Source: Escherichia phage vB_EcoM_3HA14
Length of the DNA stretch: 64,000 bases
Sequence record: MN342151.1
Reading direction: 5' to 3' (one strand)
The position numbers and the translations under genes are program-made. Shown here piece after piece: positions 1 through 45,686 of this stretch. Numbering within the stretch: the first letter of the stretch is position 1; the number at the start of each line of letters is the position of its first letter. The notes below the pieces were generated by a model, which had not been told where the DNA came from, searched no databases, and was given only the letters and a program-made list of their open reading frames with translations.

Positions 1-2
1 AT

Positions 3-2192
3 ATTAAGATTAACGCCAAAACTAAACGTGCTCTTGATAATGAGTACCTCAAGCTTAAGAAGTGTGGTGTTGACACTTATGAAACCTACATGCGAGCTAA
101 AGAAACATCCTTCTGGATGAGTCAGCAAGCTATCAACGGTTGGAAAGCTGATGTAGAACTTATGCAGTTCCACGTTAAAGAACTTGACAAGTTAACTAAC
201 GAGTTGGCTGCTGAGGTTGAACCACACCTTCCACCAACTATTAAGACAAAAGGTAAAGTCACAGGTGAAGAATTTGCCAAGTCTTGGAACGAGTATGTAG
301 ATACATTTGGTCACGTTGATGGTTTGAAAAGGATTACCAAGTACCCTAAGACAAAGTATCGTGAACAGATGCGTGAAGGTGAGTTGAAGCAGTACCCTAT
401 CAAGCCGTATGGTAAGCCAACTACAAAGATTTTTAATGTTGAGAAGCGCAACTGCTACACTCCAACTAACACGGTCACAAAAGAAGAGTACCCTGAAGGT
501 TTTGTAGCAATGAAAGATGCTCGTGCAGTTTGTAATGAACTGAATGAGAAGATTGGCAAGAAGTGTAAAGATTGGAAGCCAGTTAAGACTGTGAAAACTG
601 TGAAGTACTACAACGTTCACGTTGTTAATCACTTTGAGTTAGAGTCTAGTCGCTACACTGGTTTGATTGATGCACCATTCACACCAATTGAGTTTGAAGT
701 TTCACGAATGACTCAGGTAGCTGTGGTGAAGGATTACTTAAAATCCGTTGGCTGGATTCCTGATGATTGGAACTATAAAAAAGATTCTGACGGTCGTCCT
801 ATCAAGGTTTGCAGGTTCAAAGACAACAAAAAGATGATTCGCAAACATCCTAAGTGGGATGAGATGGTTGAACGTTGTGGGTTGAACTATATTGAGCATG
901 AAGGTGTCTACTACATCGAGCATAACTGGTCTGTTAAGAAGTACACAGATGTGCTTGAGCCTTGCTTGATTAGGACTTCACCAAAGCTTACAGAATCTTC
1001 TTATGATACAATCGAAGGTGAGCTTGGACAGAAGATTGCGAAGTACTATACTTTGATGCACCGACGCAGGACTATCGAGAACTCAAAGGATGATGAGAAA
1101 GGTTGGCTGAACCAGATTCGTCCAGATGGTCGTTTGAGTGCAGGTGCAATGGTGTTTGGTACTTCTACTGGACGTATGACTCAGTATGGTATTGTGAACG
1201 TACCTTCTGGTGCTGCTGTGTACGGTGAGCCAATGAGGGCAGTGTGGATTTGTGAAGAGGGAACCAACGTAGTATCTGTTGATATGAACTCTGCACAGCT
1301 TGTACTACTCTGTAACTTCATGGGTGATAAAGACTTCACCAAAGCGGTAACAGAGGGTAAAGAAGAGATTGAGTTTGTCCGTCAAGAGGATGGAAGATAC
1401 TACTGTAAACACTTTGACCAGTATCTGAATCCAGAGATTGACAAGTATCTGCGTTACGACTCTGAAAACGATTTGTACGTAGTTTACTCAGGGACTGATG
1501 CTCACACTCTGAACAGTATCTACTTCAGCCTTAATGATGAGCAAGATATCTTGACTTGTCGTGCTACTCAGGATGAGAATCTTCTTCATGAGATTAGCAA
1601 GGGACGTAAGAAAGCTAAGAATGGTATCTATGCTTTGTTGTTCGGTGCAGGTGATGAGAAGTTTGCTAAAACAATTAAAGCAGCAACTACTCAGGAAGGT
1701 GCATTGACTAAGCAGACTTACTTTGTGCGTTTACCGAAGATTAAGAAACTGTTAGACAACTTGGAAGCTGATTTCAAAGCAACTAAGAAAGCACTTGAAG
1801 AGGTGTTTGGTAAAACTGCTGCAATCTCTAAAGGTGGTTTTGTGAAGGTTGCTGGGGCTTGGCTGTGGTGTAAGTCTCCACACAAACTCTTGAACTATTT
1901 GCTGATGGGTTCAGAAGCACAAGTTCAGAATGAAGCAATCAACCTTGCATGTCGTCGTATGATTGACGAAGGTTTGATGAAGTTGAATGGTCGTAAACCA
2001 GCTATTGGTGCTCGCTTACTCTGTGCTTACCACGATGAAACAAGCTGGGAATGTCCAGAGAGCATGACAGCAGATGTGAAAGCAGTAACTGACTGGTATT
2101 ATGGTCAAGCATCTAAGAACCTTGGGCTAAGAAAAGAGACATTGGTCACAGGTGCAGGGAAAGTTGGTAAATCGTGGCTTGAAGTCCACTAA
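3..2192 (+). CDS. DNA polymerase, family A (5'-truncated; gene continues upstream of window)
   Basis: Reading frame is open from window position 3 with no upstream stop. Pol A-like motifs seen: VSVDMNSAQL (motif A-like), RKKAKNGIYALLFGAG (motif B-like), LLCAYHDE (motif C-like). Confidence 0.85.
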   Translation: MKINAKTKRALDNEYLKLKKCGVDTYETYMRAKETSFWMSQQAINGWKADVELMQFHVKELDKLTNELAAEVEPHLPPTIKTKGKVTGEEFAKSWNEYVDTFGHVDGLKRITKYPKTKYREQMREGELKQYPIKPYGKPTTKIFNVEKRNCYTPTNTVTKEEYPEGFVAMKDARAVCNELNEKIGKKCKDWKPVKTVKTVKYYNVHVVNHFELESSRYTGLIDAPFTPIEFEVSRMTQVAVVKDYLKSVGWIPDDWNYKKDSDGRPIKVCRFKDNKKMIRKHPKWDEMVERCGLNYIEHEGVYYIEHNWSVKKYTDVLEPCLIRTSPKLTESSYDTIEGELGQKIAKYYTLMHRRRTIENSKDDEKGWLNQIRPDGRLSAGAMVFGTSTGRMTQYGIVNVPSGAAVYGEPMRAVWICEEGTNVVSVDMNSAQLVLLCNFMGDKDFTKAVTEGKEEIEFVRQEDGRYYCKHFDQYLNPEIDKYLRYDSENDLYVVYSGTDAHTLNSIYFSLNDEQDILTCRATQDENLLHEISKGRKKAKNGIYALLFGAGDEKFAKTIKAATTQEGALTKQTYFVRLPKIKKLLDNLEADFKATKKALEEVFGKTAAISKGGFVKVAGAWLWCKSPHKLLNYLLMGSEAQVQNEAINLACRRMIDEGLMKLNGRKPAIGARLLCAYHDETSWECPESMTADVKAVTDWYYGQASKNLGLRKETLVTGAGKVGKSWLEVH

Positions 2193-2197
2193 TAGTA

Positions 2198-2232
2198 TTG
2201 ACAAGGTGCTCATGGAAGAGTACCTTATACTA
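2198..2232 (+). promoter_or_regulatory. Possible sigma70-type promoter upstream of first small early gene
   Basis: TTGACA at 2198-2203; -10 candidates TACCTT/TATACT downstream with imperfect spacing; followed by AGGAG RBS and ATG at 2254. Confidence 0.25.
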
Positions 2233-2253
2233 TATATTGTATAGGAGACTTGT

Positions 2254-2454
2254 ATGACTATTTCAGAAATTGAAGTTCAACTGCAATGTGCTGGATATTC
2301 TCAAAGTGAGATTGAGGCTATGTGCATCATCATTTGCAGTAGCCATAAGCACCTCAAGCTTTCTAATGAAAATCTTCGCAAGGTTGATATTTTTATTGCT
2401 GGAGGTAAGATTATCAAGGATAAGACAGGCTACCTTAAAGGTGAACGTCTATGA
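2254..2454 (+). CDS. hypothetical protein (66 aa)
   Basis: ORF with AGGAG RBS 7 nt upstream; first gene after polymerase. Confidence 0.35.
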   Translation: MTISEIEVQLQCAGYSQSEIEAMCIIICSSHKHLKLSNENLRKVDIFIAGGKIIKDKTGYLKGERL

Positions 2455-2660
2455 GCCATCGTGGAAGAACTCATCTCGCCATGATGCAAGGTGCTTCAAA
2501 AGAGACTATCAAGAATCGGAAGAAAACTCTTTTTGACAGAATGAATAGACTCATCGATAATGCAAGCCTACCTAACTCTGAAAAGGTTTTCTTGAAAGGG
2601 AATCTGAAGAGTATTGCACAGGAACTTATTGACATTGAATTTTGGAGACACCAAAAATGA
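2451..2660 (+). CDS. hypothetical protein (69 aa)
   Basis: Start overlaps preceding stop (ATGA), suggesting translational coupling. Confidence 0.35.
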   Translation: MSHRGRTHLAMMQGASKETIKNRKKTLFDRMNRLIDNASLPNSEKVFLKGNLKSIAQELIDIEFWRHQK

Positions 2661-2848
2661 CATACGAAGAAGCTCTCGAAGCTATGAAACAGGGCAAGAA
2701 AGTTCGAAATGAAAATTTCACATCTGATGAGTTCTTTGAAATAAAAGACGGAAAGGTTGTATGTGAAATGGGTTACCCAATGGCTGCATGGTACAAGGGG
2801 GAACCTTGGCAGAAAACTGGATGGAGTATCTTTAATGAAACTTTATAG
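2657..2848 (+). CDS. small protein with DUF2829-like N-terminal motif (candidate Tad2-like)
   Basis: Chose internal ATG 2657 with GGAG RBS. N-terminus MTYEEALEAMKQGKKVRNENF resembles the conserved start recalled for DUF2829 phage proteins; assignment from memory only. Confidence 0.4.
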   Translation: MTYEEALEAMKQGKKVRNENFTSDEFFEIKDGKVVCEMGYPMAAWYKGEPWQKTGWSIFNETL

Positions 2849-2967
2849 CATTTGGGGAAGAGTTGGTGAAGGTTATGACTGGACTCTTCTTAAAACAAAT
2901 GTTAAAAGTAACGAGATAGCTTACTACAAAATCTATTACCATAAAACTTTTAGAGAGGTAGAGTATC

Positions 2968-3219
2968 GTGAGCAATAAAGAGCAAGAAGCTTTAGCAATC
3001 TTCAAGAGCGAAGACAAATCAATAGCTTTTGTCTCAGAGGCTTGGTGCAGGGATTTGGGGTATGATTGGTATCTCTTCTTATGCGCTAAGAAAGATGTTA
3101 AACCAGTTGATGAAACCCGATTCAAAGAACTGTATAATATCTGCCAAGAGGGTTATGAAGAACATTACGAAGGTTCTTTGAATCCTGTAAATTCAAAAGC
3201 TTCAGATTTATTTTATTGA
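2968..3219 (+). CDS. hypothetical protein (83 aa)
   Basis: ORF in co-directional early gene block. Confidence 0.35.
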   Translation: MSNKEQEALAIFKSEDKSIAFVSEAWCRDLGYDWYLFLCAKKDVKPVDETRFKELYNICQEGYEEHYEGSLNPVNSKASDLFY

Positions 3220-3229
3220 GAGGTTTGAA

Positions 3230-3475
3230 ATGTTAAAATTATTGATACCAGCTTTAGTAGTCCTACTGGTTGGATGTAACCCTTCTTATGAGAATAAGGA
3301 TGCTTCTTACAGACTTCCTCCAGAAATGCAAGACTGCAAGATTTATAAACTTAATGGTGATGCCATTAGCAGGGATGTTATTGTAGTTCGCTGCCCAAAT
3401 TCTCAGACGACAACTTCTTACAAGTATGGGAAGAATAGTCAGTCACACACCACAGTTTTTGATGGGGGATATTAA
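3230..3475 (+). CDS. putative lipoprotein (81 aa)
   Basis: N-terminus MLKLLIPALVVLLVGCN has a signal sequence plus lipobox (LVGC); GAGG RBS upstream. Confidence 0.5.
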   Translation: MLKLLIPALVVLLVGCNPSYENKDASYRLPPEMQDCKIYKLNGDAISRDVIVVRCPNSQTTTSYKYGKNSQSHTTVFDGGY

Positions 3476-3476
3476 T

Positions 3477-3683
3477 ATGCAGGTTCTGGTAAACTTTATC
3501 TATAAGTATGAAAACATCTTCAGCACTATGACTGTAGCTCAACGCAATCCAGTTATTCCACGAGAAGGGGAGACTGTTGAGATTAATGATTGGAACTACA
3601 GAGTTGAAGAGGTCAAGCATAAACTTAAAGATGGTTATGACCACCAAGTTGTAAATGTGTATTTAAAAGGTAAGTGGCAATGA
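3477..3683 (+). CDS. hypothetical protein (68 aa)
   Basis: ORF-track start at 3426 overlaps the lipoprotein gene; internal ATG 3477 has a GGGGGA RBS and abuts the upstream stop. Confidence 0.35.
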   Translation: MQVLVNFIYKYENIFSTMTVAQRNPVIPREGETVEINDWNYRVEEVKHKLKDGYDHQVVNVYLKGKWQ

Positions 3684-4213
3684 GTGAAAAAAGGTTATTC
3701 AAAGAGTCCTACAGTAATCTGAAGATGGGTTATCAAGGCTACTCAATACCTTGGTATGAAGATAAGAAAAAACAGTATTCAAACCCTTTTATATATCAAC
3801 CTGTAAAACTCTCTGTACTGGAGTTTTGGCATGAAACTGGAGCTACGCCATACCAATTTGACAACATGGAATATGCGCGTATTTGTAAAAGTCTTGGTGC
3901 AAGACAAGTTGATAATATCATTGAACATTTGAAGGATTTGTATAAAGATTTTGCTGGATACTTATACGAGAAACAGTTTGGGGAGTGCTTAAAATACCCA
4001 GATGGGTCACTTGTTCTGCTCTCATACATGTCTAATGGTAACATAAAAATTGCATACAAAGACCTGTGTGATAACTACTATGATTTTTATACTAGATTGA
4101 GACTACCATACCCAGATAGCTCCTTTTCCTTATCTAGCAATGCAATGACGCACTCTGGGAATATTGTTTCTGTTGAAAAATTAAAAAAGACGTGGGAGAA
4201 GAAAAATAAATGA
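3674..4213 (+). CDS. hypothetical protein (179 aa)
   Basis: Long ORF; start overlaps the previous stop. Confidence 0.45.
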   Translation: MAMSEKRLFKESYSNLKMGYQGYSIPWYEDKKKQYSNPFIYQPVKLSVLEFWHETGATPYQFDNMEYARICKSLGARQVDNIIEHLKDLYKDFAGYLYEKQFGECLKYPDGSLVLLSYMSNGNIKIAYKDLCDNYYDFYTRLRLPYPDSSFSLSSNAMTHSGNIVSVEKLKKTWEKKNK

Positions 4214-5310
4214 CAATTCTGTACAAACAAAATAAAGATGGTTCTTTCAACGTCTGGTCATGTGTTGCTGTAGGTGATAAAGTCGTCACAACTTATGGTA
4301 AAGAAAATGGCAAGATGATGTTTGAAGAGTACACAGCAGAGCCAAAGAACATCGGTAAGAAGAATGAGCGTAATGCTGAACAGCAAGCTCTTTTTGAAGT
4401 TGCTGCTAAGTACAAGAAGCAGGTTGACCGTAAAGGGTATGCTTACACAAAATCTGAAGCAGAGAATGTTGAAAAGGTTGGTGTACAGCTTGCTCAGGAT
4501 GCTTCCAAGATAAGTCACAAGAAGTATCTGGTATTTCCTGCCGATGCTCAACCTAAACTTGATGGGGTTCGTTGCAGGATTTCAAGAGATGCTGACTCAG
4601 AAAGTTTTACGGCATATTCTCGTGAGAACACGGTATACAACATTCCTGTAGAGTTGATTCCTGATGTTCTTCTTATGCTGAAACTGCACAAAGATGTTGA
4701 AGATTTCGATGGTGAGATTTATGCTCATGGTTGGGACTTGGAAGATATTGTATCTATGATTAAGAATGCTGACAATCCAGACCGTCACCTTCTTAAATTC
4801 TACTGGTATGATATCTGTGACAAGACTAAATCTTGGCCTGAGCGTCGTGAAGTTATTGATAATTCACCAATCGTTGAACTCGGTGATGCTTGCAGGGTTG
4901 TACCTGTTCAGACAATCCGTGTTAACTCTTGGGAAGAATTTGATAATGCTCATGACAACTGGGTTAAACTCAAGTTTGAAGGGGCAATGTATCGGTCAAT
5001 CTCACCAGATTCGTTCTATGAGTGTGGTCATCGCTCTTACTTCCTGATTAAGCACAAGAAGATGCACACACAGGAATTTAAAGTAACGGGTGTAAAGACT
5101 GATAAACGTGGTCATGGTAAGTTCGTTGTAGAGACTCTTCCTAACGTCTTTGTAGATGTTTCATGGAAAACTACACACGAGAAGAAAAAGTATCTTGCTG
5201 AACATCCTGAAGAGTTTATCGGGAAGCCTTTAACGGTTCAGTTCCAGAAGATGACTCGTAAGGGTTCTTTACAGTTCCCTGTTGGGCTAGTAATTCGAGA
5301 CTATGAATAG
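4210..5310 (+). CDS. ATP-dependent DNA ligase
   Basis: Adenylation motif I KxDG present as PKLDGVRC; size (366 aa) fits compact phage ligases. Confidence 0.8.
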   Translation: MTILYKQNKDGSFNVWSCVAVGDKVVTTYGKENGKMMFEEYTAEPKNIGKKNERNAEQQALFEVAAKYKKQVDRKGYAYTKSEAENVEKVGVQLAQDASKISHKKYLVFPADAQPKLDGVRCRISRDADSESFTAYSRENTVYNIPVELIPDVLLMLKLHKDVEDFDGEIYAHGWDLEDIVSMIKNADNPDRHLLKFYWYDICDKTKSWPERREVIDNSPIVELGDACRVVPVQTIRVNSWEEFDNAHDNWVKLKFEGAMYRSISPDSFYECGHRSYFLIKHKKMHTQEFKVTGVKTDKRGHGKFVVETLPNVFVDVSWKTTHEKKKYLAEHPEEFIGKPLTVQFQKMTRKGSLQFPVGLVIRDYE

Positions 5311-5318
5311 AGGTTAGT

Positions 5319-5468
5319 ATGTTTAGCACAATTATCCTGTTTGTTTTTGTTGTTTTATCATTATCTTACTTCATAAGTAAACTTTTAAGCATAACATACA
5401 AAGCAGCCTTAGCCCTTACTCTGTTGTCATTTGCAGTAAATGCAGCAGTTAGAATGTATTTAGTATAA
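5319..5468 (+). CDS. small hydrophobic protein (49 aa)
   Basis: Not in ORF track (under 60 aa). ATG 5319; product MFSTIILFVFVVLSLSYFISKLL... is largely hydrophobic. Confidence 0.3.
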   Translation: MFSTIILFVFVVLSLSYFISKLLSITYKAALALTLLSFAVNAAVRMYLV

Positions 5469-5473
5469 AATTG

Positions 5474-5501
5474 TTGACATGAGTAACCTGACGGGTATAC
5501 T
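5474..5501 (+). promoter_or_regulatory. sigma70-like promoter inside a palindrome
   Basis: TTGACA (5474-5479), 16-nt spacer, TATACT (5496-5501). Flanked by inverted repeat CTGACGGG...CCCGTCAG with inner CTATATAG palindromes; GGAGG RBS before ATG 5546. Confidence 0.5.
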
Positions 5502-5545
5502 ACCTATATAGAAAATTATATAGGAACCCGTCAGAAACCTCGGAG

Positions 5546-5932
5546 GTGTTTATGAAAAAGTTACTTGTTGGTGTCATTGCTATTGGTATGAGTTTTAGTG
5601 CAGCAGCTATGAAGATGCCTGAAGCAAACTTTAATGGTGTCGCTTTAGAATCTTGTAAGATTGTACAGAAAATCGCTTCAAATGCTGGAGAGTTGACTAA
5701 ACCGTTGTCTGCTCAGACTGTTCAAGAAATGACTGATAAGATGGTTGACTACAACTACCATTTTATGGGAGATTACTATGACAGATTAGCAGATGAGATG
5801 GTTACTCAGAACGTTGACCTTCTTGATAGCAAAGGTATTGAGACTGTAGAAGATGTGAAAGACAATTTTATGCGTGAGTCTTTCAAAGGTGTTCAATACT
5901 TTATTGAAAATCGTCACTGCATGGGTTTATAA
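5546..5932 (+). CDS. secreted or periplasmic protein (128 aa)
   Basis: N-terminal signal-peptide-like segment MFMKKLLVGVIAIGMSFSAAA; own promoter and strong RBS. Confidence 0.5.
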   Translation: MFMKKLLVGVIAIGMSFSAAAMKMPEANFNGVALESCKIVQKIASNAGELTKPLSAQTVQEMTDKMVDYNYHFMGDYYDRLADEMVTQNVDLLDSKGIETVEDVKDNFMRESFKGVQYFIENRHCMGL

Positions 5933-5934
5933 TC

Positions 5935-6138
5935 ATGAAGAAGAACATCTGTAGAGCAGACTACGGTGAAGTAGTCGATGATGACGGAGTAGTTATTTAC
6001 AGAGTTTGGGCAAGTGATTATTCAACCGTTGTAGAGTCTTTAGATAACTACATCAATGGGACTCGTGAAAACGTCAGAGCAACTAATCTTGATTCGTTAA
6101 TAGACACTTCTCGAAAACGGAGAAAGAAAGATGAATGA
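5935..6138 (+). CDS. hypothetical protein (67 aa)
   Basis: ORF in early block. Confidence 0.35.
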   Translation: MKKNICRADYGEVVDDDGVVIYRVWASDYSTVVESLDNYINGTRENVRATNLDSLIDTSRKRRKKDE

Positions 6139-6430
6139 AGTCTTTGACCCATATGCACCTCAAGATTCTTGGGAGGCTGATAGAGAGGCTGAAATGGAGA
6201 ATTATGTCTGTCCAATGGATATAGAAGAGATGAAAGACTTTGTATCTTTCAGATTCTCTAAAGAGATTGAGAAGCTAAAACTTTCTCAGGCTCAAGTAGC
6301 AACTGTTTGTGAAATCTCACAGAGTCGTGTATCAAATATCATTAACGACCCTCAAAAGATTTCTTTAGAGTACATGCTTAATGCTTGTACAAAACTTGGT
6401 GTAAATTTTAACTTAAGGCTGGCAGATTAA
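6131..6430 (+). CDS. putative HTH DNA-binding protein (99 aa)
   Basis: C-terminal segment LSQAQVATVCEISQSRVSNIIN resembles an XRE-type helix-turn-helix. Confidence 0.45.
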   Translation: MNEVFDPYAPQDSWEADREAEMENYVCPMDIEEMKDFVSFRFSKEIEKLKLSQAQVATVCEISQSRVSNIINDPQKISLEYMLNACTKLGVNFNLRLAD

Positions 6431-6431
6431 T

Positions 6432-6791
6432 ATGAAACGTGAAAATGCAATCTTTAACGATAACTTTGCAATTGGCTTCTATGGTAAACCAACTCCAGCA
6501 GAGAAGCTTTATGGTAATGCAATTCTGGAGACCTTGAAAGAGGTTTACACAACTGGTGGTATGAAGCATACTGAAGCAAACCGTGTAAGAGGTTATATGG
6601 CAATTGGCTCTGCAATCTCTAACATCAAACTTGAAACTACAAGTGCTAAAAAGGTACGAGACCACTTCATCAAAGAGTTGTCAGAGAACCTAGATGGTGT
6701 TGAAGTCAAGGCTGTCTGGTTAGATGTTGATGGTCACAACTATACAACTTTTGTGTTTAAAAATGAGGATATCAAATGTCTCTTCCCTTAA
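6432..6791 (+). CDS. hypothetical protein (119 aa)
   Basis: ORF in early block. Confidence 0.4.
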   Translation: MKRENAIFNDNFAIGFYGKPTPAEKLYGNAILETLKEVYTTGGMKHTEANRVRGYMAIGSAISNIKLETTSAKKVRDHFIKELSENLDGVEVKAVWLDVDGHNYTTFVFKNEDIKCLFP

Positions 6792-7279
6792 AACTCGATT
6801 TATACTTTGGGTACAGTGTATTGCAAGGCAGCATACTATCACTACCAAAGTCAGATTATCGTTGTGATTTAGGTTCTGTGAAACGTGCATCACACTTTAA
6901 CAACAATATCTTAGGCTTGCAGACACTTCACAGGTGGCTTGAGGAAGATGGACGGTTAAATGAATATCTTCACCAACTAGAACTAGCCAAAGAAGAGGGG
7001 CATATGGGTTGGAATTTACTACCCCATCTGTACAAACCTGCAAGTCCTATGGAGATACGCTATAACGAACAATCTGTTGATAGTTATAACAAATATAATA
7101 TAACTATTGGCTCAAGACCTTGGAAGGAGTATGGAAAGCTCCGTGAAATCATTATACAGACTATTGGAAAGCGTGTAGCAAAAGGTATTGCTTATGATGA
7201 AAAGGTTGACTGGAATACACAAAAGTGTATAAAATTCTTCAAGTACGATAATGACAAAGATACTTTTGTAGAGGTTTAA
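6776..7279 (+). CDS. hypothetical protein (167 aa)
   Basis: ORF in early block. Confidence 0.4.
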   Translation: MSLPLKLDLYFGYSVLQGSILSLPKSDYRCDLGSVKRASHFNNNILGLQTLHRWLEEDGRLNEYLHQLELAKEEGHMGWNLLPHLYKPASPMEIRYNEQSVDSYNKYNITIGSRPWKEYGKLREIIIQTIGKRVAKGIAYDEKVDWNTQKCIKFFKYDNDKDTFVEV

Positions 7280-7280
7280 C

Positions 7281-7796
7281 ATGAAAATTGGAATTACCCT
7301 TTGCCAGCCTGAAGCAGAGTTCTTGAAATCAATGTTGTCTGAGCATATGAAGTCCACAAATCACACTGAGAAGACATTCTTGATTGACACTAACTATGAT
7401 GCAGGAACTATTGAGTTCATTGATGAAGACACTGCTGATTCTCTGTGTGTTCTTCCTGCTCACTTATTTACTCCAGAGCTACGTGAAAGTCGTTCTATTG
7501 AAGTTAATCTGGAGCCAAGTATTGAACTGTACTCAGATACACAGTATCCAAGAAGCTTTAAAGCATTGCTAAACATCTTCGTAGCTGATATTGTAGAGAT
7601 TGTTAAACAGACTGAAGGTGGTCATGTAGTAACTGCTGAGTATGAACAAGGCACTATCAAACTGACAGGTGACTTTGGTTCTATGAGTTTCTTAGACTTT
7701 GTTCCAAAACACTTTGAAGACTTTCTATCAAGTGAAGTTGATGACCTCGATTTCATACTAAAATTTGAACGCACTTTTAAGGTAAACAAAAAATGA
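7281..7796 (+). CDS. hypothetical acidic protein (171 aa)
   Basis: ORF; product rich in D/E. Confidence 0.4.
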   Translation: MKIGITLCQPEAEFLKSMLSEHMKSTNHTEKTFLIDTNYDAGTIEFIDEDTADSLCVLPAHLFTPELRESRSIEVNLEPSIELYSDTQYPRSFKALLNIFVADIVEIVKQTEGGHVVTAEYEQGTIKLTGDFGSMSFLDFVPKHFEDFLSSEVDDLDFILKFERTFKVNKK

Positions 7797-8065
7797 AAAT
7801 CTTAAGCGGAGTATCACAGTGTTACATGAATGATGGTGAGCCAGTTAAATGCTGCCATTGTGGAGGTGAGAACTTCCAAGGTGAAGTTTCAGAGATTGTC
7901 TCTGGCAATATCGCTGAAGAGTACACCCGTTGCTGTGGATGTGGAAAGATTTTATCTTTTTGGGCTTATGGAAGTTATGAACCACAACCTCACCTTATTT
8001 ACCATCCAAACAGGATTGTGAAGCGTGTTCTGAACTGGTTCATTATCAAAGGATTTACAAAATGA
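7793..8065 (+). CDS. Cys-rich zinc-ribbon-like protein (90 aa)
   Basis: Paired CxxC-like motifs (CCHCGG ... CCGCG). Confidence 0.4.
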   Translation: MKILSGVSQCYMNDGEPVKCCHCGGENFQGEVSEIVSGNIAEEYTRCCGCGKILSFWAYGSYEPQPHLIYHPNRIVKRVLNWFIIKGFTK

Positions 8066-8607
8066 TTAAGTTAATTTTTGCAAGTGGTATTAACGGGGAG
8101 TTTGGCACAGCTACTGGAATGCCTTGGCCTCGTAATAAACAAGATATGGCAGAGTTTAAGAAGCAGACTGTTAACCAGTTAGTCTTGATGGGTAGCGAAA
8201 CTTGGAAGACTCTTGGGAGCAAGCCTTTGCCAAACCGTGAGAATATTGTCTTGACAAACTCTCTTGACTTTTACGGTCTGGACTTTAAAGATGACTCTCA
8301 TTGTAAAGCAAGAGTTAAGCCTGAAGCTTTTGGGGCTTTCCTGAAGTATATTGATAGCTCTATTGATGAAGATGTTTTAGTAATCGGTGGAGCCAATATC
8401 TTAATCTCAGCTTTGCCGTATGCTGACGTAGTTTTCCACAGTGTTATTAAGGAAGTTACTGAAGAGGCTACTGTCAAGCTACCTTATGAGGGTTTCTTCC
8501 AGTACTTGTATGACACAGAGTTATTTGCTAAAGTACAGTCCAAACCTTCAGAAGATAAGTCTGTTGTGTTTGATACCTATGTTCCACAAGTAAGAGGACG
8601 TTTCTAA
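8062..8607 (+). CDS. folA: dihydrofolate reductase
   Basis: N-terminus MIKLIFASGINGEFG..MPW...LVLMGSETW..LG..PLPNRENIVLT matches the DHFR family pattern; sits next to thymidylate synthase. Confidence 0.8.
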   Translation: MIKLIFASGINGEFGTATGMPWPRNKQDMAEFKKQTVNQLVLMGSETWKTLGSKPLPNRENIVLTNSLDFYGLDFKDDSHCKARVKPEAFGAFLKYIDSSIDEDVLVIGGANILISALPYADVVFHSVIKEVTEEATVKLPYEGFFQYLYDTELFAKVQSKPSEDKSVVFDTYVPQVRGRF

Positions 8608-8608
8608 T

Positions 8609-9508
8609 ATGTCACAAGCAGATGTAAGCTACAAAGCTATTTTAAACCATGTTTTATCAGTTGGTGAGTTGCGTAAAACCCGAACTGGCTCAGTGATTTC
8701 AACCTTTGCTCCACCTGAGTTCCGTTTTGATATGCGTAGTGGATTTCCATTAATCACCTCAAAACAAACATTCATGCGTCAAGTCCTCGGTGAAGCATTA
8801 TGGTTTATGAACGGTGAAAACCAACTAGGCCATTTGCGTTACAGAACTTGGGGAGAGAACGACGGAGAGCGTTGGACTATCTGGACAGATGATTTTAAAC
8901 GTTGGTTGAAAACAACCTATGCTACAGAGAATGATTGGCTGGAGGATGCTGGAGGAAGAATCTATGGAGTCCAATGGAGAGCCTACGAAGGTCATGGTGG
9001 CGTTGTTGTAGACCAGTTGAGTAATCTTGTAGAGAAGATGAGAAAGTCTCCTACAGACCGTTACATGCTCGTTAACGCATGGAATGCAGCAGATATCTCA
9101 AGTAACTCTATGGCATTAGCACCTTGCCATGTACTTTTTCAGATTTATATCTCGAACACTAATGAGGTGGATTTGAAATGGTATCAGCGTTCTTGTGATA
9201 CGTTCTTAGGGTTACCATTTAACATTGCTTCCTATGCCTTTATCTTGGAAGTGTTGTGTAAACTGACGGGATATACACCGCGATATCTGGTAGGGACTTA
9301 TGGTGATACTCAAATCTATCAGAACCATATGTCACAGGTTTTTCAGCTTCTTGGCAATGAAGAGTTCCCAGCACCTAAGTTTGAAATTCATCAAGATTTG
9401 AAGTCTCTTGAAGACTTGAGACATATGACAGCAGATGACTTCCTAGGTGGGTTGAAAGGGTATAAACATGCTGGTAAGATTGAAGCACCTTTATCAGTAG
9501 GTAAGTAG
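8609..9508 (+). CDS. thyA: thymidylate synthase
   Basis: Catalytic-site region ALAPCHVLFQ and QRSCDTFLGLPFNIASYA closely match ThyA conserved blocks. Confidence 0.9.
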   Translation: MSQADVSYKAILNHVLSVGELRKTRTGSVISTFAPPEFRFDMRSGFPLITSKQTFMRQVLGEALWFMNGENQLGHLRYRTWGENDGERWTIWTDDFKRWLKTTYATENDWLEDAGGRIYGVQWRAYEGHGGVVVDQLSNLVEKMRKSPTDRYMLVNAWNAADISSNSMALAPCHVLFQIYISNTNEVDLKWYQRSCDTFLGLPFNIASYAFILEVLCKLTGYTPRYLVGTYGDTQIYQNHMSQVFQLLGNEEFPAPKFEIHQDLKSLEDLRHMTADDFLGGLKGYKHAGKIEAPLSVGK

Positions 9509-9512
9509 AAAC

Positions 9513-9545
9513 AAAAAAGGCTCCCGTAAAAAGGAGCCTTAGAAT
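9513..9545. terminator. probable bidirectional rho-independent terminator between convergent genes
   Basis: Stem GGCTCC/GGAGCC with short loop; A-run upstream and T-rich downstream gives a T-tract on both strands. Confidence 0.5.
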
Positions 9546-9919
9546 TATTTCTTTTTAGTGCTTTGGGTATTTTGTTCTGTAATTGCTTGCAAAGCTGATA
9601 CAGATTGTGCTAAGTTGTTAACACTGTCAGAGAACTTATCAAGGGTCTTAGTCAACTTAGCGTTTTCTCCCTTAACATTCTCTAGCTGAACTTTCTGGTT
9701 CTCCATCCCTAATTGTAGGAGCTTCATATCAGATTGTAAGTCACGAATAGCTGAATAGTTACCTTTTGAGTAACCATCCAACTGCTGTAACTTATTTGTG
9801 ATAGACACTTCCTGTTTACCATCAGAGACCTGCATTGTAGTGTACATACCAATTACACTGAAAATACCTACAACGATTGCACCAATATTATTCTTAAAAG
9901 CATCTTCAAGCCACTTCAT
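9545..9919 (-). CDS. membrane-anchored coiled-coil protein (124 aa)
   Basis: N-terminal hydrophobic segment IGAIVVGIFSVIGMY followed by heptad-like Q/L/K-rich region. Confidence 0.45.
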   Translation of the reverse strand: MKWLEDAFKNNIGAIVVGIFSVIGMYTTMQVSDGKQEVSITNKLQQLDGYSKGNYSAIRDLQSDMKLLQLGMENQKVQLENVKGENAKLTKTLDKFSDSVNNLAQSVSALQAITEQNTQSTKKK

Positions 9920-10113
9920 TATTTCTCACCTTTAAAAGCCTTTTCCAAGGTATCTACAAATTCATCATCAATAGGTGTATCTGTTTTGCTCGCAAGGTAT
10001 CTTGCAAGCTTAAAGAACACTTTTTCAATCATGTATTCACTGAGAAGAGAAAAAAGAAGCTTCCAAAAGAATGCCCCAAGGTTTTTCATGAGGATTGCTA
10101 GAATGGTTGGCAT
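9919..10113 (-). CDS. small membrane protein (64 aa), holin-like candidate
   Basis: Hydrophobic N-terminal half, charged C-terminus; start overlaps downstream gene. Confidence 0.35.
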   Translation of the reverse strand: MPTILAILMKNLGAFFWKLLFSLLSEYMIEKVFFKLARYLASKTDTPIDDEFVDTLEKAFKGEK

Positions 10114-10199
10114 TTAATCACCTTACTTCTTGAGCCAAGATGGTGAGAATACCTACTAAGAAATATTAACACCATCTTGACAGTTAGTCAACAAGGTAA

Positions 10200-12578
10200 T
10201 TATGCAGTTCTTACCCAAGCCATTAATTTAATGTAAGTGTTCTGAACACTGAATGCTGCACCAGAACCAGTTGCACCAGTGTTACCACTAAATGTGTGGT
10301 TGTGAGCACCAATACCTACACCGTGACCGTGAGCACCTACCCAACTTGTTCTCCCTGTCCAAGTTCTTGATGCGTAGAAGTTGACAGGTGTACCATAAGT
10401 GAATTGTGAACCAGTATAACCTCTAGAGGCTTGTGAACCTGAGATAGCGAATGCCCCACTTGCTGTATAGAAGCTGTTTGCATCACTTCTGAAGAAACCA
10501 AAGTCACCAGAGATTTCCATGTTACCTCTGTCATGGTCGTGAGCACCTTGAGCGTCTGTGTACTTAGTACCATAATCAAATGTACTTGTTGTTCCAGAGA
10601 AGCTATGAGTGTGCGCAGGAATATGACCAACACTTAGAGCCACCGTATCAGAACCACCAAGACCTTTCACATCGGAACCATTTGCAGAACCAATCCTAAT
10701 AGTTCTGTTTGCACCTTCTGTCAAGTAAGTCCAAGTAGTGCCTGGGAAAGCTGTATTTGGGTTGACATTAGAAGCAAAGAACGTCACAATACCAACTGGA
10801 TACACTTTCTTAAGGTCTGTAGAATCAGTTACCGCAGAGGCAATACGTTGGTCTACTTCAGCCTTGGTGTAAGCACCAAGTTCAGAGGGTGTAGGTTTGT
10901 CTTGGTCTGTGTAGATTTTAGCCCAAACCTCTTCAAAACCAAATCCATCCCTTGCTGTTCTATAATAGATTCCAGTATTCTTGTAGTTAAATTTAAACTG
11001 TGCAGTCGGTGTAGATGTACCAACTCCAAGGTGCATTTGGTAAACTAAGTGAGTAGACCCACCAGTTGAATTTGTAACACTGTACAAACCTGTTTTTGAA
11101 TTCCAAGCAATACCTGTTGCATCACCTACTTCTGTTCCCGTTCCAGATACACCAGACAACATATATCTTGAGTTTGCAGCAGATTGTGTGTAGTATCTTG
11201 AGTCAAAGTTTGACCAATCTGTAGGCTGAACCTGACCAGTTACTGATACGCTTCTGTTGAACATGAAAGTGTCAGCAATTTCTAACTGTACACCACCACT
11301 TGAATAGTTGTACAGGAACAGAGAATTTGGCCTACTGCCTTCACCGTTACCAATATACCAACGTCTGTTGCCGTCTGCATTAGCGCCAACAATATACAGT
11401 GATGAATTAGCTGTCCCACTTTGCAATGTGAAAGCCGCATCTGTAGTAACAATAGTTTGTGGGTTAGTAAAAACGTTTGCAGCATTAGTTCTTGCAAGCA
11501 CGTTCGTTAAAGAGCTTGGAACATATCTTGTATCAAAGTTTGCGAAGTCACTTGGTTTTACCTGACCAGATACATTAATAGCTTTGTTAAATGAAAACTC
11601 TGTAGCAATTTTCAAGTTAACATTTGTCATCTGGTTTGCTAAAACAATCTCAGACTGCGTACCATCTGGTTGACCCACATACCAAGCACCTGTCCCAGCA
11701 CTGTTGTAACCACGCATAAATAATGCAGCATTCTCTGAAGCCGCTCTTAAGTTAAGTGCATTACTATCTGCAATAACATAAGTCTTCCCGTTGAAGTTGT
11801 TAACCCCAACAAAGTTATTACTTGCATTAAGTCTTGCAAATCTCTGGTCAGCAGCAGTCTGTGTAAAGAATCTTGCATCAAGGTTGTTCCAGTTATTAGG
11901 CTGAACCTGACCATTGATTTCAAAGTTCTTGTCAACACTAACAGAGTTTGTACCAAGAGTCAACGTAGCACCTTTGCTGTTAACTAATGTAACATCAGTC
12001 CCAGAAGTCAAGTTACCAACTGTGAATCTCAAAGCATTATTTGAGTCTCTTGCTTCAATATATGCTCCACCATCTGGTAAGATACTTTTAAGTGTCAAAC
12101 CAACACCGTTGATATTAATGATTTGTCTTGCCAAGAAAGTATTTTCAGTTTCCTTCATAGCATATCTTGCATCATTTTCAGTGTTAGTTCTCATACCTAA
12201 TTCATTAGGAGATGGTTTATTAAGTGTGTGATAAACTGTTGCAGACCTTGTGGCATCATTTACAGTTAATCTTAAAGCACTTGCATTAATTCTAAAGGTC
12301 TTGGCAGTGTCACCGAGAATAACTTCAGAAGAACCTGTTGGGTCTAATAAGTCTTTTCCACCGTATCTTAATTTAACGATGCCAAGATTTCCTGTCATAT
12401 CCCCACCAGTTAGTTGTAAGAATCTTTCTAGTTTGAAAGAGGCAAGGAAATTTGCATAGGTCATTTTACGGTCTTCATCACCTAGCATATCAGACCTTTT
12501 GATAATTCTTAGGTGAAGTAAATCTTCTGAGCGAACTGTATCAATACTGTTTAGCTCACTTAGCTTATATTCAGCCAT
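10200..12578 (-). CDS. tail fiber protein (792 aa)
   Basis: Large S/T/N/G-rich protein with repetitive N-rich segments and C-terminal His-x-His boxes (HIPAHTHSF, HDHD, HGHGVGIGAHNHTF); first gene of the tail module. Confidence 0.7.
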   Translation of the reverse strand: MAEYKLSELNSIDTVRSEDLLHLRIIKRSDMLGDEDRKMTYANFLASFKLERFLQLTGGDMTGNLGIVKLRYGGKDLLDPTGSSEVILGDTAKTFRINASALRLTVNDATRSATVYHTLNKPSPNELGMRTNTENDARYAMKETENTFLARQIININGVGLTLKSILPDGGAYIEARDSNNALRFTVGNLTSGTDVTLVNSKGATLTLGTNSVSVDKNFEINGQVQPNNWNNLDARFFTQTAADQRFARLNASNNFVGVNNFNGKTYVIADSNALNLRAASENAALFMRGYNSAGTGAWYVGQPDGTQSEIVLANQMTNVNLKIATEFSFNKAINVSGQVKPSDFANFDTRYVPSSLTNVLARTNAANVFTNPQTIVTTDAAFTLQSGTANSSLYIVGANADGNRRWYIGNGEGSRPNSLFLYNYSSGGVQLEIADTFMFNRSVSVTGQVQPTDWSNFDSRYYTQSAANSRYMLSGVSGTGTEVGDATGIAWNSKTGLYSVTNSTGGSTHLVYQMHLGVGTSTPTAQFKFNYKNTGIYYRTARDGFGFEEVWAKIYTDQDKPTPSELGAYTKAEVDQRIASAVTDSTDLKKVYPVGIVTFFASNVNPNTAFPGTTWTYLTEGANRTIRIGSANGSDVKGLGGSDTVALSVGHIPAHTHSFSGTTSTFDYGTKYTDAQGAHDHDRGNMEISGDFGFFRSDANSFYTASGAFAISGSQASRGYTGSQFTYGTPVNFYASRTWTGRTSWVGAHGHGVGIGAHNHTFSGNTGATGSGAAFSVQNTYIKLMAWVRTA

Positions 12579-30014: not shown

Positions 30015-31480
30015 TATTTGTTTGCCTTATTAGCTGTGCTTGGGTCTCTAGCTGAAGGAGTATTAGCAGTCCCTTCTCCAGCAGTTTGATAACCATCACC
30101 AGAACGACTTTGAGTGTTTGGAGATAGTTTCTCAGATACTGGTTTAGACTCATCAGCAGGTTCAAGGTCAAGATATTCTCTAAGCTTGTCAGACAATGGC
30201 TTGTCAACTTCCAGAGCACCAACTGCAACTGTTTTCTGAATGAATGATGCAATAGCTTCAAGGTCTGGTGTCTCAATATCATCATACACAATTTCTACGT
30301 GTTCTTCATCATCCCACATATTTAGTGCATAAGTCTGAGCAACCAAATCACGGTTAATTACATTCTTCACTTGCTTCAGAAGAATATCAACTGACATTGC
30401 CAGTAAGCTTGTCTTAGAATCTGCCAGAGAGAATGAGCCATACTTTGACTGTCCCATAGCAAGAACATCAGACATAAACGCCATCATAATTTGCTTAGAG
30501 TATCTATCAATGATAGAACCTGTATCATAAGCTTTAGCACCCTGTCGAGAAACTAATGAGAACTCAAAGATATCTTCTTTAGTTTCTGGGTCGATAAATC
30601 TAGGCCAAATTAAACCTGCTCTGTCATTAGCAATTAAATCATTTACTACTTCTTGGCAGTATTTAACAAAAGCTTTCTTTTCAGGTTCTGCATCTTCACC
30701 TAAGTAATCAGGTGGAAGACCAATCTTTGGCATACCTACTAAGTCTCTGGAAACACCAACTGCTTCAAACTCTTCAATTTGAACTTTGTATTTCCAAGGA
30801 ACATAAGCATTAAGCAATGGTGAACGTCCCTCTGGGTTACCATATTCATCGTCATACTTGAACAATAAGAATTTACTTCTGGGAAGCTTTCTTGTCAATG
30901 GTTGTTCACCAAGATTAATTGCTCCTGCAATATGGGAGACATTACGCAGGTTCTGTCTAACACCAATGACTTTTCTATAGTCAGAGTCAAAGTACCATTT
31001 ATCTAATGTAGTCTGATTACGGATTGGTAATTTAGCCCAACCAATTAAACCATCATTATATTTTGAAGGGTACTTACCTTTCTTACCTTGACGTTTCTTA
31101 TAAACTTTCTCGTTTACACAGAAACCGTAAGTACAGAATGACATTACAGAGTTAATAAAGTCAGCCCAATCGTGCTCCATGTCATTCATTAGTGAGTTAA
31201 AGAAATTAGCCCTTTCAATCATCTTGGCATCTTTCTCTTTTCCCTTCGGTGGTACGAATCTCCAGTTAACCTTTCTGACAAACATCTTAATAATATTTAC
31301 AGAGGCTGCTACTGAAGGGTCTCTCATCATAAGTTGGAAAGTCTTAATACTTTCTGGGAATCTTAAAGCCTGTCTAGGTTCTTCATAGATTCTTCCTGAG
31401 CGAACTTTAAGGCCAAGACTCCCAACCTCACCCATTCTGAATGGAGGAAGGCTTTCTTGTGTTTCTGTGATATCTGCCAT
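30014..31480 (-). CDS. portal protein (488 aa)
   Basis: Immediately downstream of large terminase; size typical; acidic C-terminus. Confidence 0.65.
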   Translation of the reverse strand: MADITETQESLPPFRMGEVGSLGLKVRSGRIYEEPRQALRFPESIKTFQLMMRDPSVAASVNIIKMFVRKVNWRFVPPKGKEKDAKMIERANFFNSLMNDMEHDWADFINSVMSFCTYGFCVNEKVYKKRQGKKGKYPSKYNDGLIGWAKLPIRNQTTLDKWYFDSDYRKVIGVRQNLRNVSHIAGAINLGEQPLTRKLPRSKFLLFKYDDEYGNPEGRSPLLNAYVPWKYKVQIEEFEAVGVSRDLVGMPKIGLPPDYLGEDAEPEKKAFVKYCQEVVNDLIANDRAGLIWPRFIDPETKEDIFEFSLVSRQGAKAYDTGSIIDRYSKQIMMAFMSDVLAMGQSKYGSFSLADSKTSLLAMSVDILLKQVKNVINRDLVAQTYALNMWDDEEHVEIVYDDIETPDLEAIASFIQKTVAVGALEVDKPLSDKLREYLDLEPADESKPVSEKLSPNTQSRSGDGYQTAGEGTANTPSARDPSTANKANK

Positions 31481-42219: not shown

Positions 42220-43100
42220 TTAAAGCAAAGACATATCCAGATTTTAAAGAGTTCGTTAAGGATTTTGTAGCGAATGTTAAAGCTGGCAAAAGATACGACT
42301 TCAGAAAGTATCAGGAGGCTGTTCTGCCTCTGACATATAGCTCACCGTGGCCTGAGTCTGATATTCCAGAAGTTACTGACTTCAATTACACGCCAGACTA
42401 CACAGTTCCATTTAGTGAAGAACTCTTATATTCAGTTGGTGCTCAGATGAGGACTGCTGACTTCTTCATGGACTTGCAGTATGCAATCATCAATGGGAAA
42501 GATGTTGATACAGTTTATTGTGAATGGTTGGCAAGGGTTAAACCTTTCTCCATGCTTAATGCAAAGTTGAAGGATGCAATCACACCTCCAGTTATTACAC
42601 AGCAGCCAACTGACCAAACTGTTAACGAGGGTGGAACACTTACACTTTCAGTTGTTGCTACTGGTGCAACTGGTTATCAGTGGAAGAAAGGTGCATCAAA
42701 CATCTCTGGAGCAACCTCTGCAACATATACTAAGAATGGCGTAGTCCCTACTGATGCTGGCGCATACACCTGTGTAGTTTCTGGTGAAGGTGGCTCAAGT
42801 GTTAATTCCAACGCTGCCACAGTAACTGTGAATGCACTGCCTGTGATTACACAGCAACCTACTAACCAAGAGATTACAGAGGGAGATACACTCACCCTTA
42901 GCATCGTAGCCACTGGTGCAACTGGTTATCAGTGGAAGAAAGATGATGTAGATATCCCTTCAGCAACATCTGCAACATATGAAAAGACACCGACTTCTAA
43001 AGCTGATGATGAAGGTACTTACTCTTGTGTTGTAACTGGTGTAGGTGGCTCAATCACATCCCAATCTGCCAAGGTGGTTATTAACGCAGTAGGAGGTTGA
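42216..43100 (+). CDS. protein with two tandem Ig-like domains (294 aa)
   Basis: C-terminal half is two about 82-aa repeats (PVITQQPT.Q...TLTLS.VATGATGYQWKK...SATSATY...Y.CVV.G.GGS) with alternating beta-strand pattern; N-domain paralogous to the upstream gene. Confidence 0.6.
   Translation: MIKAKTYPDFKEFVKDFVANVKAGKRYDFRKYQEAVLPLTYSSPWPESDIPEVTDFNYTPDYTVPFSEELLYSVGAQMRTADFFMDLQYAIINGKDVDTVYCEWLARVKPFSMLNAKLKDAITPPVITQQPTDQTVNEGGTLTLSVVATGATGYQWKKGASNISGATSATYTKNGVVPTDAGAYTCVVSGEGGSSVNSNAATVTVNALPVITQQPTNQEITEGDTLTLSIVATGATGYQWKKDDVDIPSATSATYEKTPTSKADDEGTYSCVVTGVGGSITSQSAKVVINAVGG
42583..43080 (+). repeat. tandem direct duplication (about 2 x 246 bp) encoding the two Ig-like domains
   Basis: Nucleotide-level repeat with an identical core ACTGGTGCAACTGGTTATCAGTGGAAGAAAG in both copies. 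Confidence 0.7.
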
Positions 43101-43567
43101 TAATGCAACTCTCAAGTAAAGGCTTAGAAGCCATTAAGTTCTTTGAAGGGCTTCGCTTAGAAGCTTATAAAGACTCTGCTGGAATCCCCACAATCGGCTA
43201 TGGAACAATCCGTATCAACGGAAGACCTGTTACGATGGGTATGAAAATTACTGCCGAGCAAGCTGAACAATATCTCCTTGCAGATGTTGAGAACTATGTA
43301 GGTGCAGTAAACAAAGCAATCAAGGTTCCAACTACTCAGAATGAGTTTGATGCACTTGTTGTAGAGACTTACAACATTGGTATCGATGCTATGCAGGATT
43401 CAACTTTTATCAAGCGTCACAATGCTGGTAATAAAGCTGGGTGTGCAGAAGCTATGCAGTGGTGGAACAAGATTACAGTGAATGGTCAAAAAGTAACTTC
43501 CAAGGGTCTACAAAATAGACGTAGTTTGGAAGCCAAGATTTACCTTGACGCTGTTTATCCAAAATAG
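43097..43567 (+). CDS. endolysin, T4-lysozyme-like (glycoside hydrolase family 24)
   Basis: N-terminal catalytic region EGLRLEAYKDSAGIPTIGYGT matches the T4 lysozyme pattern (catalytic Glu, Asp, Thr spacing). Confidence 0.85.
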   Translation: MIMQLSSKGLEAIKFFEGLRLEAYKDSAGIPTIGYGTIRINGRPVTMGMKITAEQAEQYLLADVENYVGAVNKAIKVPTTQNEFDALVVETYNIGIDAMQDSTFIKRHNAGNKAGCAEAMQWWNKITVNGQKVTSKGLQNRRSLEAKIYLDAVYPK

Positions 43568-45616: not shown

Positions 45617-45686
45617 CAGTGATATCTAGAATTTTGTATGATGGGAGCTATCGAAAGGTGGTTCCCTTTTTTATTGGAGAGATAAA

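Follow-up and report, generated by a model that had tools for sequence, protein, structure and literature searches.

Several virulent phages make small exported proteins that act from the periplasm, and two kinds of these are among the closest described counterparts of the gene considered here. The first is the exclusion lipoprotein, of which T5 Llp binds the periplasmic face of FhuA (PMC9586334) and Rtp45, found like Cor among the T1-like siphophages, engages LptDE where it faces the periplasm (PMC12685063). Genes for exclusion of this type are found at the receptor-binding protein (RBP) locus and are characteristic of virulent phages that target porins (PMC8594841, PMC11990801). T5 llp is divergent and adjoins the receptor-binding gene oad, and the genes of Cor and Rtp45 lie directly 3' of gpJ/RBP genes. 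The second is T4 Sp (spackle, gene 61.3), which is encoded among early replication genes and is soluble, of the signal-peptidase-I type and a member of phrog_1586. In the 64,000-nucleotide stretch of Escherichia phage vB_EcoM_3HA14 analysed here (MN342151.1; hereafter the window, meaning the whole stretch), an 81-residue lipoprotein is encoded at positions 3230-3475, which the initial annotation had put forward as a candidate superinfection-exclusion or receptor-masking factor. As judged from profile comparisons it is a small phage-encoded periplasmic lipoprotein of this general kind that stands outside the Llp, Cor, Rtp45, Sp and spanin families. The analysis below argues against masking of the phage's own receptor, and the leading guess, a tentative one, is that the protein acts in a more general exclusion or protection at the level of the envelope.

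The window belongs to a Felix O1-like myovirus (Ounavirinae, Mooglevirus); over the first 9 kb it shares 98.9% identity with Shigella phage Sf15, and 261 phage records are similar to that portion. The open reading frame (ORF) lies exactly where the initial annotation had placed it, with 81 codons and the full translation MLKLLIPALVVLLVGCNPSYENKDASYRLPPEMQDCKIYKLNGDAISRDVIVVRCPNSQTTTSYKYGKNSQSHTTVFDGGY. The features of the gene and its product are as follows.

3220-3223, + strand: Shine-Dalgarno sequence GAGG, 6 nt 5' of the ATG, from direct reading
3230-3475, + strand: prolipoprotein coding sequence, 81 residues, ATG at 3230 and TAA at 3473-3475, identical to Sf15 gp60
3230-3274, + strand: signal peptide, residues 1-15 (n-region with K3; h-region LLIPALVVLL), from direct reading
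3266-3277, + strand: lipobox L13-V14-G15-C16, with the Cys16 codon TGT at 3275-3277 as the predicted acylation and cleavage site, from sequence and conservation
3275-3472, + strand: mature domain of 66 residues, with strands modelled by AlphaFold2 at residues 19-22, 37-42, 49-54, 60-66 and 69-75
3335-3337, + strand: Cys36 codon TGC, first half of the predicted disulfide, an invariant column at the start of strand 37-42
3392-3394, + strand: Cys55 codon TGC, second half of the predicted disulfide, an invariant column at the end of strand 49-54
3389-3415, + strand: signature loop R54-C-P-N-S-Q-T-T-T62 (consensus VVRCPNSxTTT), the most conserved surface stretch and a candidate binding site

The gene is tightly packed between its neighbours, the upstream ORF ending with a stop codon at 3217-3219 and the next ORF starting at 3477. 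Its identical counterpart in Sf15, gp60, is annotated 'hypothetical, predicted membrane protein', and homologues in Mijalis, Felix O1 (ORF91) and many more records are labelled hypothetical. When the mature part was compared with 21 distinct Ounavirinae alleles, the ratio of nonsynonymous to synonymous divergence (dN/dS) was 0.02-0.11 where dS was measurable; for most other pairs dS was saturated, with dN <= 0.1. On the evidence of these alleles the ORF is a genuine gene under strong purifying selection.

The N-terminus, MLKLLIPALVVLLVGC, satisfies the classical lipoprotein rule, with a lysine at position 3 (M-L-K3), an h-region free of charge from residue 4 to residue 15, a lipobox and a cysteine within residues 15-35. 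The canonical lipobox described in the initial annotation is thus in the sequence, and it is kept across the family, a regular-expression lipobox being present in 147 of the 160 family sequences collected; the remainder have variant boxes or mis-called or truncated N-termini. With the rule set as [LVI][ASTVI][GAS]C and Cys at residues 15-35, a scan of all start-to-stop ORFs in the 64 kb returned only the lipoprotein ORF and one antisense ORF (with two alternative starts), while shuffled windows gave a mean of 0.12 matches. A looser scan added one further credible lipoprotein, the o-spanin at 60441-60707. The Pfam model LPAM_1 matches 16 members in a scan of 92. Signal peptides vary among the homologues (compare MLKLLIPALVVLLVGC with MWKTIIALGVLFLTGC) and the mature domain is conserved, as would be expected if the signal is cleaved off.

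The residue that follows the acylated cysteine bears on the membrane in which the protein would reside. Asparagine at this +2 position leads to outer-membrane sorting, and aspartate leads to Lol avoidance and retention in the inner membrane. Asn17 therefore predicts outer-membrane sorting of the lipoprotein from this phage. Across the 147 lipobox sequences the commonest +2 residues are Ser (25), Asn (23), Asp (20), Glu (20) and Thr (19). The members with Asp, ~14% of the total, include several from enterobacterial phages, among them Klebsiella phage KaOmega (C-D-N) and Yersinia phage fHe-Yen9-04 (C-D-G), and by the same sorting rule these are predicted to be retained in the inner membrane. Taken jointly, it is very probable that the protein of this phage is exported by Sec, processed by Lgt and LspA at Cys16 and anchored in the outer membrane in a Lol-dependent manner through Asn+2, with a periplasmic beta-domain that carries a C36-C55 disulfide.

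The lipoprotein matches phrog_902, which has no function label, over residues 1-76 with an E value of 5.1e-17, and this is the only PHROG family that it matches significantly. A profile search of 1.8 billion cluster representatives (50% identity) returned 627 proteins at E <= 1e-3, of which 86 reach E <= 1e-10 and nearly all have a length of 75-100 residues. In an alignment of 92 sequences with a mean column identity of 26%, the only invariant columns are C16, C36 and C55, with P30, P56, T60 and K68 conserved in at least 90%. The family consensus reads Y-x-L-P-x-E-L-x-D-C-K-x-Y ... V-V-R-C-P-N-S-x-T-T-T-x-Y-x-x-G-K, and a degenerate DNA pattern for VVRCPNSxTxT recovered 31 viral contigs. Some members have an extra pair of cysteines, which fits an oxidising compartment, or a repeated C-terminal 'VVIDGVxY' strand. 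In precomputed tables all members carry the label PF16225 (DUF4884), and a 'DUF4884' gene has been reported in Henu8 (PMC12210894). In a local Pfam-A scan neither the query nor a single one of the 92 members matched PF16225, even with the threshold relaxed to E <= 1-10; the discrepancy is probably due to a difference in Pfam release or model.

Modelling with AlphaFold2 was poor when 10 close homologues were supplied (predicted local distance difference test score, pLDDT, 59). With 92 diverse homologues the mean pLDDT rose to 75.7, and the model comprises a signal-peptide helix followed by five strands in a beta-meander. In this model C36 and C55 face each other in disulfide register at the base of the 37-42/49-54 hairpin, one at either end of it, fitting both their invariance and a periplasmic location, so that a disulfide between them would staple the hairpin. 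A fold search of the PDB with the model gave no significant match, and sequence searches of Pfam, NCBIfam, PADLOC and the PDB returned only signal-peptide noise. The idea that the terminal tyrosine might form a C-terminal 'beta-signal-like' element was dropped, as most close homologues stop short of that position. The relatives in phrog_902/DUF4884, among them Sf15 gp60, Moogle gp40, Felix O1 ORF91, Acj61p058 and fHe-Yen9-04 g072, belong to the same hidden Markov model (HMM) family and share the lipobox, the three cysteines, the VVRCPNSxTTT loop and a length of ~80 residues; nothing sets the lipoprotein of the window apart from them. As far as the database entries go, its sequence has been deposited many times as hypothetical, its mature part is 100% identical to existing entries, and the family is catalogued and uncharacterised.

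A tblastn search found the domain in ~570 of 50,697 phage records. These include ~200 Ounavirinae and ~290 T5-sized (~114 kb) Vibrio phages, jumbo phages (~350 kb) of Erwinia, Yersinia, Serratia and E. coli, Vequintavirinae-like phages of Klebsiella, Cronobacter and Pantoea, T4-like phages of Acinetobacter and Pseudomonas, further Acinetobacter phages of 45 kb and of 100-235 kb, and phages of Aeromonas and Pectobacterium. In the lineages that were examined, the gene is always surrounded by small genes that are early or associated with replication. When the flanking ORFs of 11 lineages were compared all against all, no neighbour was shared, except in two closely related jumbo phages, and neither in this phage nor in 11 other lineages does the family gene adjoin a receptor-binding gene. 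A search of 5,426 complete E. coli genomes, at the DNA level only and thus one that divergent prophage copies could escape, gave no copy, and neither did a search of 72,556 plasmids at the protein level. As far as these searches reach, the family appears restricted to phages, mostly large virulent ones. Two records have an unusual setting. In a 2.23-Mb JGI contig (Ga0495683_0000001) a family member at 8001-8255 lies amid ankyrin-repeat proteins, a Cys-tRNA synthetase, a dUTPase and mostly ORFans; this contig may be a giant virus or symbiont genome, an unexpected place for a lipoprotein otherwise confined to phages here. GU169904.1, a record labelled Staphylococcus phage SA1, has at 94358-94555 a lipoprotein gene of this Gram-negative type with 82% identity; in all probability the record is a chimera or contains contaminating Felix O1-like sequence.

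These data bear directly on whether the lipoprotein acts as Llp, Cor and Rtp45 do, binding the periplasmic face of the phage's own outer-membrane receptor, distorting its surface loops and so blocking adsorption of sister phages to infected cells and debris. The likeness is real in outline: with Llp it shares its origin in a virulent phage, an outer-membrane-type sorting signal (Asn +2), production before lysis and a cysteine-containing periplasmic domain, and it is near in size to both Llp (77 residues) and Rtp45 (~6 kDa, PMC12685063). Cor and Rtp45 are likewise small periplasmic lipoproteins, and the beta-sheet augmentation by which Rtp45 pairs with LptDE (PMC12685063) would be open to the predicted beta-meander. 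The likeness does not extend to the sequences. An hhalign comparison of the 92-sequence profile with Llp, for which the query was checked to be 100% identical to T5 llp, aligned only 18 columns, all in the signal peptide. There was no sequence or fold match in the PDB although FhuA-Llp and LptDE-Rtp45 structures have been described with PDB depositions, no match to any exclusion lipoprotein in PHROG, Pfam, NCBIfam or the PDB, and no match to a Cor-annotated family in PHROG or Pfam at E <= 0.1.

The location of the gene differs as well. The tail-fibre/RBP locus of the window lies at ~10-14 kb, on the other strand and beyond the holin, so that the lipoprotein gene is at least 6 kb from any tail-fibre gene, whereas llp adjoins oad and the Cor and Rtp45 genes follow their RBP genes directly. 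An example of the latter arrangement was seen in the T1-like Shigella phage pSf-1, in which a small lipoprotein ORF (starting MKELIAVLIAAVALTGC, 45529-45759, - strand) lies just 3' of a gpJ-like tail protein and a 'membrane protein'. By analogy this is the position expected of a Cor/Rtp45-type exclusion gene, in contrast to that of the phrog_902 gene; no phrog_902 member was found in pSf-1.

The distribution and the receptor point the same way. Llp occurs in only 34 records, from FhuA-using T5-like phages, against the ~570 records of many lineages for phrog_902, and phages of Vibrio, Acinetobacter, Aeromonas, Erwinia, Yersinia and Klebsiella that have this one domain in common cannot share one receptor. 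Felix O1-like phages are reported to target lipopolysaccharide (LPS) and not protein receptors (PMC8594841); LPS, the receptor reported for the Ounavirinae, could not be jammed from the periplasm, and complete modification of such abundant glycans is considered futile (BASEL literature). The members with Asp +2, moreover, are predicted to lie in the inner membrane. With no homology, no fold match, no linkage to an RBP gene and a reported receptor class other than protein, it is highly unlikely that the lipoprotein masks a receptor. This specific part of the proposal in the initial annotation is not supported; its broader part, exclusion or protection, is the leading guess, if a tentative one.

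The gene is not present in all Ounavirinae. In SUSP1 the family HMM finds nothing in 90.7 kb, and the homologue of the 68-residue gene that lies downstream of the lipoprotein gene in the window is found 8 nt after a Tad2-like gene, so the lipoprotein gene is accessory. SUSP1 plaques on E. coli K-12 and has been used in a genome-wide knock-down screen (PMC11879866), the CRISPRi-ART fitness data from which are inapplicable to the lipoprotein since SUSP1 is without the gene. Comparison of the genomes indicates that the gene is an accessory, stand-alone cassette that is dispensable in at least one relative. The absence from SUSP1 has the form of a clean gene-sized indel. Near it, agp043 of SUSP1 (30793-31220 region) looks like a fusion of a Tad2-like protein with the 'KASDLFF' C-terminus of the 83-residue ORF found at 2968-3219 of the window.

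General exclusion or protection at the level of the envelope, as opposed to masking of the phage's own receptor, is the reading that we would put first, though we hold it only tentatively. In outline, the protein would be made alongside the replication genes, early to mid infection, and would need no phage-encoded partner. After Sec export, Lgt would acylate Cys16 and LspA would cleave before it, leaving a disulfide-stapled beta-sheet domain of ~66 residues facing the periplasm. The conserved RCPNSxTTT face would then bind a periplasm-exposed component of the envelope that is conserved across the Gammaproteobacteria, the target not being the LPS receptor. Binding would alter the envelope of the infected cell such that later insults fail, whether entry of DNA from a secondary phage, attack by a tail lysozyme or other events that cross the envelope. 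The protein would be a factor in the spirit of T4 Sp and Imm, rather than a receptor jammer like T5 Llp.

An envelope-level role of this sort would suit a protein predicted to be exported, tethered to a membrane and disulfide-bonded, apparently confined to phages, probably made ahead of the late genes and independent of any linked partner. The hints toward exclusion or competition are weak associations, the adjacency to spackle being the only direct one. In the T4-like phage Acj61 the family member Acj61p058 is immediately 5' of Acj61p057, which, with T4 Sp as control, was identified as a homologue of spackle (phrog_1586, E 9e-17), and Acj61p057 is followed by 61.1 and 61, mirroring the T4 order sp-61.2-61.1-61 (locus 3667-5591). 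In five lineages the direct neighbours of the family gene are small membrane proteins, and in the window a Tad2-like candidate is close by. Four genes upstream in Acj61, Acj61p062 is another lipoprotein with weak similarity to phrog_902 (E 0.0036). The lipoprotein resembles T4 Sp in being a small exported protein of a virulent phage with periplasmic action and a gene among early replication genes, but the two have no sequence similarity: the query gives no match to phrog_1586, which both controls, T4 Sp and Acj61p057, do match. That the lipoprotein might replace spackle in T4-like phages was considered and rejected, as the gene beside the Acj61 lipoprotein is itself the spackle homologue.

A narrower version is that the family forms a pan-lineage system that seals the envelope, the disulfide-stapled domain of ~65 residues docking by beta-strand pairing on a conserved, essential envelope machine. 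Candidate targets would be the LptDE, BAM, Lol or Tol-Pal assemblies, or the conduit for phage DNA entry. If true, this would close the infected cell to secondary infection whatever receptor the incoming phage uses, and would explain both why the RCPNSxTTT surface is kept across unrelated phages and why a member adjoins spackle in Acj61. In this particular form the proposal is unlikely.

The adjacency to spackle also brings in another possibility, that the lipoprotein inhibits a periplasmic enzyme, blocking a peptidoglycan hydrolase such as the tail lysozyme of a superinfecting phage or a host autolysin, in the manner of MliC/PliC or T4 Sp. Its predicted features, small, periplasmic, membrane-tethered and disulfide-stabilised, are those of many lysozyme inhibitors. 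Against this, it resembles Sp, MliC, PliC and Ivy neither in sequence nor in fold, Sp is retained in Acj61 alongside the family member, and in the model the domain directly follows the lipid anchor, which would give it a short reach to the murein layer. We consider such an inhibitor quite improbable.

Several points weigh against envelope exclusion as the function. The spackle neighbourhood is a single case in a hyperplastic region, and in PspYZU05 the gene follows rIIA-rIIB-dam instead. That Acj61 carries both Sp and the family lipoprotein means that the two are not simple substitutes. The variation at +2 suggests that the family may occupy either membrane, which complicates a model with a single target. 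The structural model is of moderate confidence and matches no known fold in the PDB, the family is 'hypothetical' in every record seen with no homology link to any function, and literature searches on the family names found no paper that discusses the phrog_902/DUF4884 phage lipoproteins. The timing of expression, finally, would follow from that of syntenic neighbours and not from the gene's own transcript.

As to that timing, the gene lies in a run of + strand genes made up of a DNA polymerase (90-2192), six small ORFs, the lipoprotein, a 68-residue ORF, an ORF of ~170 residues and a DNA ligase (4210-5310), continuing through further small genes to a dihydrofolate reductase (8062-8607) and a thymidylate synthase (8609-9508). 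The ORFs that flank the lipoprotein gene, of 83 and 68 residues, have no transmembrane segment. Two signals are relevant to its transcription.

2533-2561, + strand: candidate sigma-70 promoter TTGACA-17-GATAAT (11 of 12 positions), within the transcription unit and ~670 nt 5' of the lipoprotein gene, from a promoter scan that overall was not above chance
9517-9540, both strands: bidirectional intrinsic terminator that closes the + strand unit, the only + strand terminator-like site in the scan of 1-10200

Since this is the sole + strand site of its kind, there is none between the polymerase gene and that point. The hairpin corresponds to terminators t79 and t80 of Felix O1 (PMC3185647). In Felix O1, reverse transcription PCR (RT-PCR) showed the transcripts of ORFs 88, 89, 90, 93 and 96 to peak at 25 min ('middle') and that of ORF95 at 5 min, the polymerase transcript being detectable within 5 min; the set did not include ORF91, the homologue of the lipoprotein gene (PMC3185647). 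A literature search found no Felixounavirus transcriptome. From its position among these ORFs the gene would be expressed 'early to middle'. The initial annotation had described it as encoded among early genes; it does lie in a transcription unit for replication and nucleotide metabolism, and 'early' is itself drawn from position, the Felix O1 neighbours being mostly 'middle'. The same unit also encodes a 49-residue single-pass membrane protein (5319-5468, + strand) and a 128-residue protein with a signal peptide (5546-5932, + strand, phrog_4332), and so, on these predictions, it contains several small envelope-directed proteins.

The initial annotation had also noted that the gene is not in the lysis module. 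This is true but says little, since the lysis genes of the phage are scattered and all of them are distant.

9545-9919, - strand: holin
43097-43567, + strand: endolysin
60601-60948, - strand: i-spanin (phrog_1152 'Rz-like spanin', E 7e-38)
60441-60707, - strand: o-spanin lipoprotein, starting MKKLRQSLLMIVLLSLMSGC, which overlaps the i-spanin and was found in the looser lipobox scan

The two spanin genes are not annotated as such in Sf15, while the syntenic genes of SUSP1 are spanins in RefSeq. Just past them, at 62150-62722 on the - strand, is a 190-residue protein with an N-terminal signal peptide that belongs to phrog_600 (no function label). The lipoprotein at 3230 has some likeness to an Rz1-type o-spanin, being an outer-membrane lipoprotein of similar length in a phage of a Gram-negative host, but it is not proline-rich. 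With the real overlapped pair at 60441-60948 and no adjoining or overlapping i-spanin gene at 3230, its assignment as the o-spanin was rejected.

A related suggestion is that it serves as an additional o-spanin-like component, or that it regulates the timing of lysis from the periplasm, as an antiholin or as an inhibitor of endolysin or spanin, and so holds the envelope until assembly is done. Besides the topology shared with o-spanins, this could draw on a faint match to a PHROG Rz-like spanin (E 0.09) and faint Lysis_col matches in 2 of the 92 members, all of which cover the signal peptide only, and on the presence of rIIA/rIIB-type genes in these phages, the PspYZU05 homologue following rIIB. 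Set against this, the phage already has its spanin pair, there is no adjacent type-II membrane partner, the gene is co-transcribed with replication genes and not with late genes, and SUSP1 lyses its host and makes plaques without it. A role in lysis is accordingly improbable.

The islet in which the gene lies is consistent with another type of function, a counter-defence or host-takeover role in which the lipoprotein would neutralise a host function located in the envelope that would abort or sense the infection. Candidate targets would be a sensor of envelope stress, a protease or nuclease of the periplasm, or an abortive-infection effector anchored in the membrane. Between the polymerase and ligase genes is a variable islet of small accessory genes that includes the candidate for a Tad2-like protein (Thoeris anti-defence 2), two genes 5' of the lipoprotein at 2642-2848 on the + strand. 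This ORF, for which relatives have an annotated start near 2657, matches PF11195 with an E value of 4.9e-5 and 24.2 bits, the cutoff being 25, and may encode an anti-defence sponge that shares the islet with the lipoprotein. The gene-sized presence or absence of the lipoprotein gene and its stand-alone nature would fit such a role, as would its wide host range, its conserved surface and its confinement to phages in the E. coli genome and plasmid searches. On the other hand, the lipoprotein matches no PADLOC or anti-defence family, no known envelope defence is common to all of the hosts, and the Tad2-like match is below threshold, proximity in a dense early region being weak evidence in any case. 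A counter-defence function would therefore seem fairly unlikely.

On present evidence the finding is an ordinary conserved hypothetical lipoprotein, to which no surprising mechanism is attached. Its useful outcomes are that an Llp-like reading is unlikely, that one relative at least can do without the gene and that the family is well defined by its anchor cysteine, its disulfide and its signature loop. Were a function to be found, several hundred 'hypothetical' genes could be annotated across phages that are candidates for therapy, namely the Felix O1-like, Vequintavirinae, jumbo and T4-like phages. If receptor-independent exclusion were true it would bear on the design of phage cocktails, in which one phage could block another, and would point to a conserved and druggable periplasmic target. 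The breadth of the family together with its sharply conserved surface makes it a reasonable target for experiment.

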